A stretch of DNA of 64,000 nucleotides from Escherichia coli (GTDB taxonomy: Bacteria > Pseudomonadota > Gammaproteobacteria > Enterobacterales > Enterobacteriaceae). How positions within the stretch are numbered: position 1 is the first letter of the stretch; every line of letters begins with the position of its first letter. The stretch lies in NCBI RefSeq assembly GCF_003334765.1, contig NZ_QOWT01000001.1, one strand, 5' to 3'. The notes beneath the pieces are model-generated. The model was not told the DNA's origin, made no database searches, and was given only the letters and a program-made list of their open reading frames with translations. Made by a program: the position numbers and the translations under genes. Of the stretch, positions 37,956 to 41,286 are shown piece by piece.

Positions 37956-39239
37956 TTAGCCTTTAGCTGTTGCATTTTGTTTATGAAACAGTTCACGGAA
38001 CACCGGATAAATATCATCCTGGTCGCGGATGTGCTGCATCGCAAAGTTGTCGAAAGTAGATTGCAGATGCTCATATTCTCGCCACAATGTCTGATGTGCA
38101 CGACGGGTAATTTCGATATAGCTGTAATAACGAACAACAGGTAATAATTTTTTCGCCAGGATTTCATGGCAAAGCGGAGAGTCATCGGCCCAGTTATCGC
38201 CGTCCGATGCTTGTGCAGCGTAAATATTCCACTGTGCCGGGTTATAACGCTCTTTCACTACCTCATCCATCAGTTTCAGGGCGCTGGAAACAATGGTGCC
38301 GCCTGTTTCCTGCGAGTAGAAAAACTCATGTTCATCGACTTCTTTCGCCTGGGTATGATGGCGGATGTATACGACTTCCACGTTCTTATACGTTCTGCTG
38401 AGGAACAGATACAGCAGAATATAAAAACGCTTAGCCATATCTTTAGTGGATTGATCCATTGAACCGGAAACGTCCATCAGGCAAAACATCACTGCCTGGC
38501 TGGAGGGATCGGGCCGCTTCTCGTAGTTCTTGTAACGTAAATCGAAGGTGTCAATAAAAGGGACGCGTTCAATTTTGGCACGTAATTCTGCAATTTCTTT
38601 GCGCAGACGTTCCTCTTCCAGCAGTTGCGCAGGTTCACTGTTGCTGATGATGGCCAAATTCTCTTCCAGTGCATGAAGTTCCCGCCGCTTGCCTGCCGTC
38701 ATGGCTGTGCGTCGCGCCAGTGAGTTCTGCAATGAACGCACAACGCTGATATTGGCCGGAACGCCGTTAGCGGTATAACCCGCCCGATGCGTTTTATATT
38801 CGGTCAGCTGGCGTTGTTGGTTTTGTTTCAGATTCGGTAAGGCCAAATCTTCAAAGAGCAGATCAAGATACTCATCTTTCGAAATCTGAAAGACAAATTC
38901 ATCCTGACCTTCACCATCCTGGCTGGCCTGGCCCTGACCACTGCCGGAACCTCCGCCGCCACCCTGGGGACGTTCAATTCGGTCGTTCTGGACGAAATGG
39001 TCATTGCCCGGATGCACGCGGTGGCGCAGACCGCCACGCCCCTGATGAAACATCGGTTCGCTAATATCTTCCGTGGGAATGGATACGGATTCGCCGCTGT
39101 CGACGTCAGTCACCGAACGCTTATTAATGGCCTCGGAGATCGACTGTTTAATTTGCGCTTTATAACGGCGTAAAAAACGCTGGCGATTCACCATGCTTTT
39201 GTTTTTGCCGTTCAGACGCCGGTCAATAAACCAGGTCAT
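37956..39239 (-). CDS. yeaH: DUF444 protein YeaH
   Basis: 427-aa ORF with Gly-rich stretch [11 protein letters not shown]; downstream of yeaG in the same orientation. Confidence 0.9.
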
Positions 39240-39351
39240 ATGCCCCCCGTACTACATTTGCCAACTGTATGCTACGCCTGTGTTGCCGCTTCTCAGGCCC
39301 ACGGTTCGCTGTCGTTGTAGGCCCGGTAACATGTGTACCGGGCCAGGGTTG

Positions 39352-41286
39352 TTAAGACGATTTACGTACGCGCAAATACCATTCGCACAGTAAACGCACC
39401 TGTTTACGGGTGTAGCCTTTTTCCATCATACGGTCGACAAAGTCGTCGTGTTTCTTCTGCTCGTCGGTTGACGTTTTGGCGTTAAACGAGATAACCGGCA
39501 ACAGCTCCTCGGTATTGGAGAACATTTTCTTCTCGATGACCGTGCGCAGTTTTTCATAGCTGGTCCAGTTCGGATTGCGTCCGCTGTTATTCGCTCTGGC
39601 GCGCAGTACGAAGTTAACAATCTCGTTGCGGAAATCTTTTGGATTACTGATCCCCGCCGGTTTCTCGATTTTCTCCAGCTCGGCGTTAAGAGACTCGCGG
39701 TCAAACAGCTGCCCGGTATCCGGATCGCGATACTCCTGATCCTGAATCCAGAAATCCGCGTAGGTAACATAACGGTCGAAAATGTTTTGCCCATATTCGG
39801 AATAGGATTCAAGGTAGGCCGTCTGGATCTCTTTGCCGATAAACTCGGCATATTTCGGGATCAGATAACCTTTCAGGAACTCCAGATAGCGTTCTGCCTG
39901 CTCTTGTGGGAACTGCTCGCGCTCAATCTGCTGTTCCAGGACGTAGAACAGATGGACCGGGTTTGCTGCCACTTCTACATGATCGAAGTTGAACACGCGG
40001 GAGAGGATCTTAAACGCAAAACGCGTCGACAGACCGTTCATCCCTTCATCGACACCGGCGTAGTCACGATATTCCTGATACGACTTGGCTTTGGGATCGG
40101 TGTCTTTCAGACTTTCGCCATCATAAACCCGCATCTTTGAATAAATGCTGGAGTTTTCTGGCTCTTTCAGGCGCGAAAGAATGGAAAAACGTGACAGTGT
40201 TTCGAGCGTGCCAGGGGCGCATGGGGCGTGAGTCAATTCACTGTGATTAAGCAATTTCTCGTAGATTTTGATCTCTTCGGAAATGCGCAAGCAATACGGC
40301 ACCTTCACGATGTAAACACGATCGAGGAAGGCTTCGTTGTTTTTGTTATTACGGAAAGTGACCCATTCGGACTCGTTCGAGTGTGCGAGAATAATCCCGT
40401 TGAACGGCAGGGCGGAGATACCTTCCGTCCCGTTGTAGTTACCTTCCTGAGTGGCGGTTAACAAGGGATGCAGCACTTTAATCGGTGCTTTAAACATCTC
40501 AACGAATTCCATGATCCCCTGATTGGCGCGGCACAGCGCACCGGAATAGCCGTAGGCGTCCGGGTCATTCTGCGCGTAGTGTTCGAGTTTACGAATATCG
40601 ACTTTCCCAACCAGCGCGGAGATGTCCTGGTTGTTCTCATCGCCGGGTTCCGTTTTGGCGATAGCAATTTGTTGCAGAATTGACGGCCAGACCTTCACTA
40701 CCCGGAACTTAGTGATATCGCCACCAAATTCATGCAGGCGTTTTGCCGCCCACGGCGACATGATGGTGCCGAGATAACGGCGAGGAATGCCATACTCTTT
40801 TTCCAGAATCTGCGCATCTTCCTGCGGATTGAAAAGACAGAACGGATGATCGTTGACCGGGCTACGCTCACCGTTCGCGCTCAATACATAAATCGGTACG
40901 AGCTGCATTAATGATTTCAGTCGCTCAGCAAGCGATGATTTACCCCCACCCACAGGCCCCAGCAGATACAGGATTTGTTTCTTCTCTTCCAGCCCCTGAG
41001 CCGCGTGTTTCAGATAAGAGACAATCTGTTCAATCGCGTCTTCCATGCCGTAAAACTCTTCAAACGCCGGATAACGTGCAATGACCCGGTTAGAAAAGAG
41101 TCGAGAAAGTCTGGGTTCCTGGGCTGTATCGACCATGACAGGCTCACCGATAGCCATCAATAGCCGCTCAGCCGCGTTGGCATAAGCACTGCGATCTTGC
41201 CGACAAGTGGTAAGAAACTCCTGCAGTGTGAACTCTTCGTCCTTGGCAGCTTCATATCGCTGGCGATAGTGATCGAATATATTCAT
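39352..41286 (-). CDS. yeaG: PrkA-family serine protein kinase YeaG
   Basis: 644-aa ORF with Walker A motif GPVGGGKSS; recognised as YeaG. Confidence 0.92.
   Translation of the reverse strand: MNIFDHYRQRYEAAKDEEFTLQEFLTTCRQDRSAYANAAERLLMAIGEPVMVDTAQEPRLSRLFSNRVIARYPAFEEFYGMEDAIEQIVSYLKHAAQGLEEKKQILYLLGPVGGGKSSLAERLKSLMQLVPIYVLSANGERSPVNDHPFCLFNPQEDAQILEKEYGIPRRYLGTIMSPWAAKRLHEFGGDITKFRVVKVWPSILQQIAIAKTEPGDENNQDISALVGKVDIRKLEHYAQNDPDAYGYSGALCRANQGIMEFVEMFKAPIKVLHPLLTATQEGNYNGTEGISALPFNGIILAHSNESEWVTFRNNKNNEAFLDRVYIVKVPYCLRISEEIKIYEKLLNHSELTHAPCAPGTLETLSRFSILSRLKEPENSSIYSKMRVYDGESLKDTDPKAKSYQEYRDYAGVDEGMNGLSTRFAFKILSRVFNFDHVEVAANPVHLFYVLEQQIEREQFPQEQAERYLEFLKGYLIPKYAEFIGKEIQTAYLESYSEYGQNIFDRYVTYADFWIQDQEYRDPDTGQLFDRESLNAELEKIEKPAGISNPKDFRNEIVNFVLRARANNSGRNPNWTSYEKLRTVIEKKMFSNTEELLPVISFNAKTSTDEQKKHDDFVDRMMEKGYTRKQVRLLCEWYLRVRKSS

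Follow-up and report, generated by a model that had tools for sequence, protein, structure and literature searches.

The yeaG-yeaH operon of Escherichia coli, its distant partner ycgB and a possible motor-plus-adaptor mechanism for its products

The system closest to the one described here is the yeaGH operon of Escherichia coli K-12 (b1783-b1784; Figueira 2015, Price 2018, McQuail 2023, Sultan 2021), and the locus that we analysed, within a 64-kb stretch of E. coli DNA from contig NZ_QOWT01000001.1 (the window), is the chromosomal yeaG-yeaH operon of this species, flanked by the same neighbours, cdgI and mipA. The window also has in common with K-12 the sigma-54 site sequence and the target positions of the small RNA (sRNA) SdsR given by McQuail et al., and we found no difference of substance between the two. 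The operon is RpoS-dependent and responds to acid, osmotic, stationary-phase, sulphur and nitrogen stress, nitrogen starvation inducing yeaG mRNA; strains deleted for yeaG, yeaH or both become less viable during prolonged nitrogen starvation and resume growth after a shorter lag. [quoted passage not shown] The genes, the ycgB partner, control by sigma-54/NtrC and sigma-S, SdsR, the knockout phenotypes and the phosphoproteome are all published, and the locus is in that sense already known. As to how its products may work, we lean, with modest confidence, towards a motor-plus-adaptor mechanism like that of AAA+/vWA (von Willebrand factor A) partner systems rather than a classical eukaryote-like kinase.

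Three-gene operons in which prkA, a DUF444 gene and spoVR follow one another are known from Vibrio, Aeromonas, Shewanella, Pseudomonas and Vogesella, with gene order and orientation like those of E. coli and with orthologues that are 74-88% (YeaG), 53-78% (YeaH) and 64-80% (YcgB) identical to the E. coli proteins. In these operons ycgB stands directly after yeaH and no exact sigma-54 element is present, whereas the window has a sigma-54 promoter and lacks ycgB. More distant are prkA-yhbH and spoVR of Bacillus, sporulation genes that have Pfam families in common with yeaGH and whose mutants are altered in how they enter a dormant state or in its quality; YeaH reaches 238 bits against the spore_yhbH model TIGR02877, short of the 468 that the model requires. 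They form a distant subfamily that serves endospore formation under sporulation-regulator control, whereas E. coli does not sporulate. In Bacillus, phosphorylation by PrkC is reported to control PrkA activity. A likeness of another kind, in possible working rather than in membership, links yeaGH to the AAA+/vWA pairs RavA-ViaA, NorQ-NorD and CbbQ-CbbO and to the metal ion-dependent adhesion site (MIDAS) of Midasin/Rea1. The operon, its products and its upstream border comprise the following features.

37956-39239, minus strand: yeaH coding sequence, 427 aa, DUF444 / YeaH-YhbH family (open reading frame (ORF), Pfam, NCBIfam)
37980-38534, minus strand: vWA domain of YeaH, residues ~236-420
38460-38474, minus strand: MIDAS motif DxSxS of YeaH (D256, S258, S260), with T315 and D346 as further MIDAS residues
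39352-41286, minus strand: yeaG coding sequence, 644 aa, PrkA-family AAA+ ATPase, annotated 'protein kinase YeaG' (ORF, Pfam, NCBIfam, RefSeq)
40933-40959, minus strand: Walker A motif (P-loop) GPVGGGKSS, YeaG codons 110-118
41287-41721, no strand: control region of 435 bp shared by the divergent genes yeaG and mipA
41722-42468, plus strand: mipA, 248-aa ORF divergent from yeaG

In the six-frame ORF list of the window, yeaG and yeaH are co-oriented with 112 bp between them. YeaG belongs to the PrkA / YeaG family (Pfam PF08298 and PF06798; NCBIfam NF011999), which it matches over its full length and above the curated thresholds: the AAA_PrkA profile covers residues 19-380 (E 2e-187), the PrkA C-terminal domain residues 382-636 (E 1.7e-70), and the NCBIfam equivalog reaches 1342 bits (cut-off 576) across 1-644 of 644 residues. 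YeaH is a full-length member of the DUF444 / YeaH-YhbH family, with a match to PF04285 over residues 4-421 (E 4.8e-191) and 843 bits against NF003708 (cut-off 466). Megablast places the segment 37700-41800, at 95-100% identity, in every complete E. coli genome (5426 of 5426), where its genes carry the names yeaG, yeaH, cdgI and mipA, and the YeaG sequence of the window falls in a cluster of 17,593 identical database entries. Given these profile matches and the presence of the locus in every complete genome, yeaG and yeaH are real conserved genes and not chance ORFs. An earlier reading of the window, made from its sequence only, had described a 644-aa YeaG with the motif GPVGGGKSS, followed in the same orientation by a DUF444 YeaH and preceded by some 430 bp shared divergently with mipA; ORFs and profiles agree exactly with the first two statements, and the upstream region measures 435 bp.

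The P-loop of YeaG (G110-S118) is invariant in 30 homologues, phage copies included. The protein is very highly conserved, with 74-79% identity between E. coli and Pseudomonas or Vogesella and 66-70% in two phage-like metagenomic copies. A family homologue of 692 aa, deposited as 'Serine protein kinase', is represented in the PDB by entries 9xip, 9xiq and 9xir (E 7.5e-51 to YeaG, 9e-64 with a profile), the three together holding 30 chains; literature searches returned no paper describing them. ATP hydrolysis and ATP-dependent oligomerization have been reported for the Bacillus PrkA homologues only.

The C-terminal half of YeaH adopts the vWA fold (Rossmann-like, alpha/beta) and carries a complete MIDAS, with the DxSxS motif and downstream Thr and Asp residues, T315 and D346, taken as the MIDAS pair by their position in the fold rather than by a residue-by-residue check. 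All five residues (D256, S258, S260, T315 and D346) are invariant in 91 YeaH homologues of ~40% identity. We found no paper stating that YeaH is a vWA protein; DUF444 may already be classed among the vWA domains in domain databases. The assignment opens a cheap and sharp genetic test, by MIDAS point mutants.

No SpoVR/ycgB homologue is encoded in the window, where the best tblastn match of E. coli YcgB has E 0.72, and so there is no third partner within 64 kb. In MG1655, ycgB lies at 1235709-1237241, between fadR and dadA and ~630 kb from yeaGH; together with the tblastn result and with Price et al., this position bears out the sequence-only reading, which had placed the SpoVR homologue elsewhere. 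A scan of one genome per species gave 80 loci. The genes yeaG and yeaH are adjacent in 77/77 loci in which both were found, and ycgB starts at most 300 bp from yeaH, often overlapping it, in 57 of the 59 loci outside the Enterobacteriaceae and the Erwinia-type genomes. In Aeromonas, Moritella, Shewanella, Colwellia and others ycgB is followed by fadR and nhaB, its neighbours in E. coli, the Vibrio loci not sharing this; in Plesiomonas, a basal enteric, yeaG, yeaH and ycgB are contiguous. Erwinia, Pantoea, Tatumella and Acerihabitans have the order mipA-yeaG-yeaH-cvrA-dadX-dadA-ycgB-fadR (not every gene at every locus), which corresponds to the two E. coli loci in direct succession; the gap between yeaH and ycgB in these Erwinia-type genomes is 1.7-8.5 kb, and in Brenneria only dadA intervenes. 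In Escherichia, Citrobacter, Kluyvera, Enterobacter and their relatives, the genes after yeaH are dgcJ, yeaK and others that also lie downstream of yeaH in the window, with no ycgB within the flank.

The contiguous, Erwinia-type and Enterobacteriaceae arrangements together point to a stepwise split, in which an ancestral yeaG-yeaH-ycgB operon would first have been interrupted by insertion of cvrA/dadXA, and a later rearrangement in the Enterobacteriaceae, with a breakpoint between yeaH and cvrA, would have carried the two parts far from each other. A single inversion of ~630 kb would, we infer, suffice for the E. coli arrangement. Most bacteria have the third gene next to the other two, and such a history would account for its absence from the yeaGH locus of E. 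coli. In MG1655 a partial copy of IS1414 lies between dadX and cvrA, near the region of the presumed breakpoint.

Clustered prkA, DUF444 and SpoVR genes also lie on phage-like metagenomic contigs, at 6051-11662 of L003/L004, at 1179-4042 of L005 (where a family could be assigned to the last two genes only, the upstream gene running off the contig end) and at 3892-8735 of L008, in the company of genes for DNA polymerase A, a PD-(D/E)XK nuclease, an SNF2 helicase and a phage tail-like protein. A 308-aa ORF without Pfam match (9276-10202) separates the DUF444 gene of L003/L004 from its SpoVR gene, and a 62-aa ORF separates prkA from the DUF444 gene of L008; both may be additional, uncharacterized components. 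YeaG-like genes are present in uncultured phage genomes of 595-642 kb (three at 62-65% identity and one at 26%), in Ralstonia phage RsoM2USA and in Thermus phages, and PHROGs has families for all three triad proteins. The 30.8-kb record of Enterobacter phage LAU1 (MN688132.1) holds at 1-1932 a yeaG copy whose protein is 97.7% identical to E. coli YeaG; this copy probably stems from host sequence included in the record and not from the phage.

The control elements and RNA structures of the operon lie in the window as follows.

41452-41462, minus strand: candidate sigma-S promoter, extended -10 element TCTACGCTTAA (exact match to KCTAYRCTTAA)
41390-41405, minus strand: sigma-54 -24/-12 element TGGCATGAGAGTTGCT (pattern search and identical published chromatin immunoprecipitation sequencing (ChIP-seq) sites)
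41308-41317, minus strand: SdsR pairing site CCTGTGCTAA, at -31 to -22 in the yeaG 5' untranslated region (UTR) (positions from McQuail et al. 2023, located in the window)
39320-39344, minus strand: GC-rich stem-loop right after the yeaG stop, in the 112-nt spacer, without a U tract (folding)
37915-37960, minus strand: intrinsic terminator ending the operon, an 11-bp GC-rich stem followed by UUUUU (terminator scan)

The sigma-54 element conforms to the consensus TGGCAY-N5-TTGCW, with GG at -24 and GC at -12, and is oriented toward yeaG; from the 3.55 matches expected per window, ~0.012 would be expected by chance in the control region in this orientation. It predicts a start near 41379, hence a 93-nt 5' UTR, in agreement with the -93 boundary of the yeaG 5' UTR reporter of McQuail et al. 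2023, and sites of identical sequence have been assigned to yeaG by sigma-54 ChIP-seq in E. coli (OS18, distance 93) and in Salmonella. Upstream of yeaG the element recurs at 0 mismatches in 12 of 18 Enterobacterales loci (Plesiomonas excluded) and in none outside this set, all Vibrionales, Alteromonadales and Pseudomonadales loci included; at 1-2 mismatches it is found in four loci outside the enterics (two Chromatiales, one Vogesella and one unclassified gammaproteobacterial metagenome-assembled genome). Because the exact element is confined to Enterobacterales loci, NtrC control of yeaG looks like an enteric acquisition. A second sigma-54-like element with one mismatch, TGGCACTTGGAGTGCT, lies at 41741-41756 on the plus strand, just inside the start of mipA and on the mipA strand; window-wide, matches of this one-mismatch type are at chance level (4 found, 3.55 expected).

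Some 45 nt upstream of the sigma-54 element, and so placing two stress promoters in tandem, TCTACGCTTAA is the only exact match on either strand of the window (0.17 expected) to KCTAYRCTTAA, the sigma-S extended -10 consensus of Weber et al. 2005 as quoted in PMC5650638. In an alignment of 12 Enterobacterales upstream regions the sigma-54 and sigma-S elements are both conserved, the sigma-S block in most, as is a leader block that contains the SdsR pairing site and the ribosome-binding site; across the Enterobacterales the conserved block reads TGTGCT-AAAAACGAAAGGAC. The sequence-only reading had considered this region a plausible place for sigma-S/NtrC-type control, which gains support from the exact sigma-S -10, the published sigma-54 ChIP-seq site and a published NtrC ChIP peak over the yeaGH promoter; the promoter mapping that it proposed is already in the literature for the sigma-54 and NtrC sites. 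A generic sigma-70 promoter scan gave chance-level matches and was not used, and a 75-aa ORF at 41283-41510 (minus strand), which covers the promoters and the 5' UTR, was taken as spurious.

McQuail et al. 2023 showed that SdsR represses yeaG and validated its pairing at -31 to -22 by compensatory mutations. The 93-nt leader itself has no unusual structure (z -0.08). The stem-loop after the yeaG stop folds at -18.3 kcal/mol (z -2.5), and other enteric genomes have hairpins of differing sequence at the same position in a spacer that is longer than in non-enterics (median 89 vs 46 nt); it may serve to stabilize the mRNA or to guide its processing, and so set the ratio of YeaG to YeaH. The terminator past yeaH folds at -25.4 kcal/mol (z -8.7), a value that 0 of 200 shuffled sequences reached. 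Taken with the published work on which it largely rests, a near-certain scheme of expression emerges: the operon would be transcribed leftward from a sigma-S promoter and, ~45 nt downstream, from an NtrC-activated sigma-54 promoter; SdsR would bind the yeaG 5' UTR and lower translation; and the transcript would end at the strong terminator just past yeaH.

What the proteins do is less settled. In the mechanism that we favour, YeaG would be an AAA+ ATPase motor and YeaH its adaptor, with the vWA MIDAS gripping an acidic residue of a partner or target; YcgB would be a third subunit or a client, and the three proteins would act as one ATP-driven protein-remodelling unit that slows metabolism in starvation and delays regrowth. 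The invariant P-loop, the AAA_PrkA profile, the lack of a kinase or Lon match and the kinase-inactive Bacillus homologues all argue for this motor-plus-adaptor reading, in which the vWA fold, the conserved MIDAS and the linkage of the three genes are direct observations and the complex and its remodelling activity are inferred. Several points weigh against it. The papers that we read show no physical YeaG-YeaH-YcgB complex. An adjacent, co-oriented vWA/MIDAS gene, as in MoxR-type pairs, is present in yeaH, 112 bp downstream of yeaG, but YeaG falls outside the MoxR clade (AAA_5 E 0.11, Mg_chelatase E 0.62, RavA E 1.3), carries a C-terminal domain that is large and particular to its family, and belongs to a system that requires a SpoVR-family protein as its third member; because YeaG is not of the MoxR clade by sequence, the likeness to MoxR-type ATPase/vWA pairs is functional only. 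The AlphaFold2 model of YeaG was poor (pLDDT, the predicted local distance difference test, 56.5 with a 30-sequence alignment), because the homologues in the alignment are 66-96% identical, and was not used; a Foldseek search with it gave no match at E <= 0.001, a result from which we draw nothing. On the side of expression, the sigma-S start site, near 41444-41448, is predicted rather than mapped, and the NtrC site TGCACC-N5-GGTGCA has no match at up to 3 mismatches in 41287-41721; since NtrC binds there by ChIP, the site is non-consensus or the search pattern too strict. Finally, E. coli YeaG is cited as autophosphorylating and as phosphorylating casein, and it phosphorylated isocitrate lyase (AceA) in vitro, if only with malate present.

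These last reports are part of the case that YeaG is a genuine Ser/Thr kinase of metabolic enzymes such as AceA, with YeaH and YcgB modulating or scaffolding it, and they are joined by the altered phosphosites in a SILAC (stable isotope labelling) phosphoproteome of a yeaG deletion (the very comparison proposed in the sequence-only reading, and already published) and by the protein kinase name in RefSeq and NCBIfam. We nevertheless consider a kinase unlikely. No Pkinase-type profile was among the Pfam matches to YeaG even at E up to 10, and HRD, DFG and APE tripeptides and a GxGxxG glycine-rich loop are absent from its sequence, a divergent active site still being possible, so that neither the catalytic-domain profile nor the catalytic motifs of Hanks-type Ser/Thr kinases are found; published analyses have called PrkA kinase motifs degenerate or noted the P-loop as missing. 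The AceA assay used microgram amounts, ran for 2 h and was read out with an antibody, B. subtilis PrkA showed no autophosphorylation and no kinase activity, and highly purified B. anthracis PrkA, which oligomerizes with ATP, showed neither kinase nor protease activity, trace contaminants having explained the weak activities seen before. A kinase would, moreover, leave the invariant MIDAS of YeaH without a role. The 'PrkA-type kinase' of the sequence-only reading thus stands as to family and is contested as to kinase; its view that the mechanism is poorly defined holds, kinase, protease and neither each having been reported.

The protease reading, in which YeaG would be a Lon-like ATP-dependent enzyme degrading specific regulators in starvation, appears more doubtful still. 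In its favour, B. subtilis PrkA, which showed ATPase activity, degraded alpha-casein in an ATP-dependent, PMSF (phenylmethylsulfonyl fluoride)-sensitive reaction that was lost in a Walker A mutant, and Lon AAA+ modules are the only non-family sequence similarity to YeaG in the PDB. That similarity is weak and confined to residues 76-130 around the P-loop (E 0.007-0.03), however; YeaG lacks the C-terminal protease domain with its Ser-Lys dyad, and Lon_C was not among its Pfam matches at E up to 10. The casein digestion was slow, needing 24 h, and was not reproduced with pure B. anthracis PrkA, a co-purifying E. coli amidohydrolase being the possible source of weak proteolysis in the first preparation. 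Least probable is that YeaG/YeaH and YcgB are co-regulated without being one machine, their separation in E. coli reflecting independent functions: the distance between the genes there and the differing mutant phenotypes between species would fit, but near-universal adjacency or overlap outside the enterics, co-occurrence on phage contigs, and cofitness together with synteny have largely refuted it. For YcgB (510 aa, SpoVR family) we found no solved homologue. A role of the triad in anti-phage defence was rejected for want of a significant PADLOC match: among PADLOC models YeaG matches IetA at the level of the P-loop only (E 0.0069 over 39 residues), and YeaH and YcgB match none.

The operon is naturally disrupted in some strains: HB101 has IS1A inside yeaG, NCTC86 has ISEc40 inside yeaH, and in K-12 AG100 a 176-bp insert (6555-6730 of its locus sequence), whose ends resemble, we presume, those of IS2, lies near codon 11 of yeaG. 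Because mutants regrow faster, loss of yeaGH may be selected in laboratory strains. Downstream of yeaH, cdgI (yeaI; 36334-37809, minus strand) has an N-terminal membrane-sensor half of 32-37% G+C (especially 37000-37999), against ~50% in yeaG and yeaH, and among the other enteric loci checked was seen only in E. albertii (80%); this low G+C and narrow distribution suggest a recent or fast-evolving addition. Elsewhere in the window, two Rfam matches exceed the gathering score, a cspA-type thermoregulator 5' UTR at 583-1043 (plus strand) and the sRNA sroD at 20092-20177 (plus strand), both ordinary known features of this chromosomal region.

The PrkA triad is among the most conserved of poorly understood bacterial modules, and it controls the depth of starvation shutdown and the speed of regrowth, with a bearing on persistence and on strain engineering. 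We offer as a tentative view, somewhat short of an even chance, that 'protein kinase' is a historical misannotation and that YeaG, YeaH and YcgB constitute a hitherto unrecognized type of AAA+ machine, in which YeaH, through its vWA domain and MIDAS, would link an exceptionally conserved motor to its targets, and which would impose metabolic quiescence. If this is true, the triad would be portable enough for such phages to carry the whole set and, with it, to manipulate the dormancy of their hosts.

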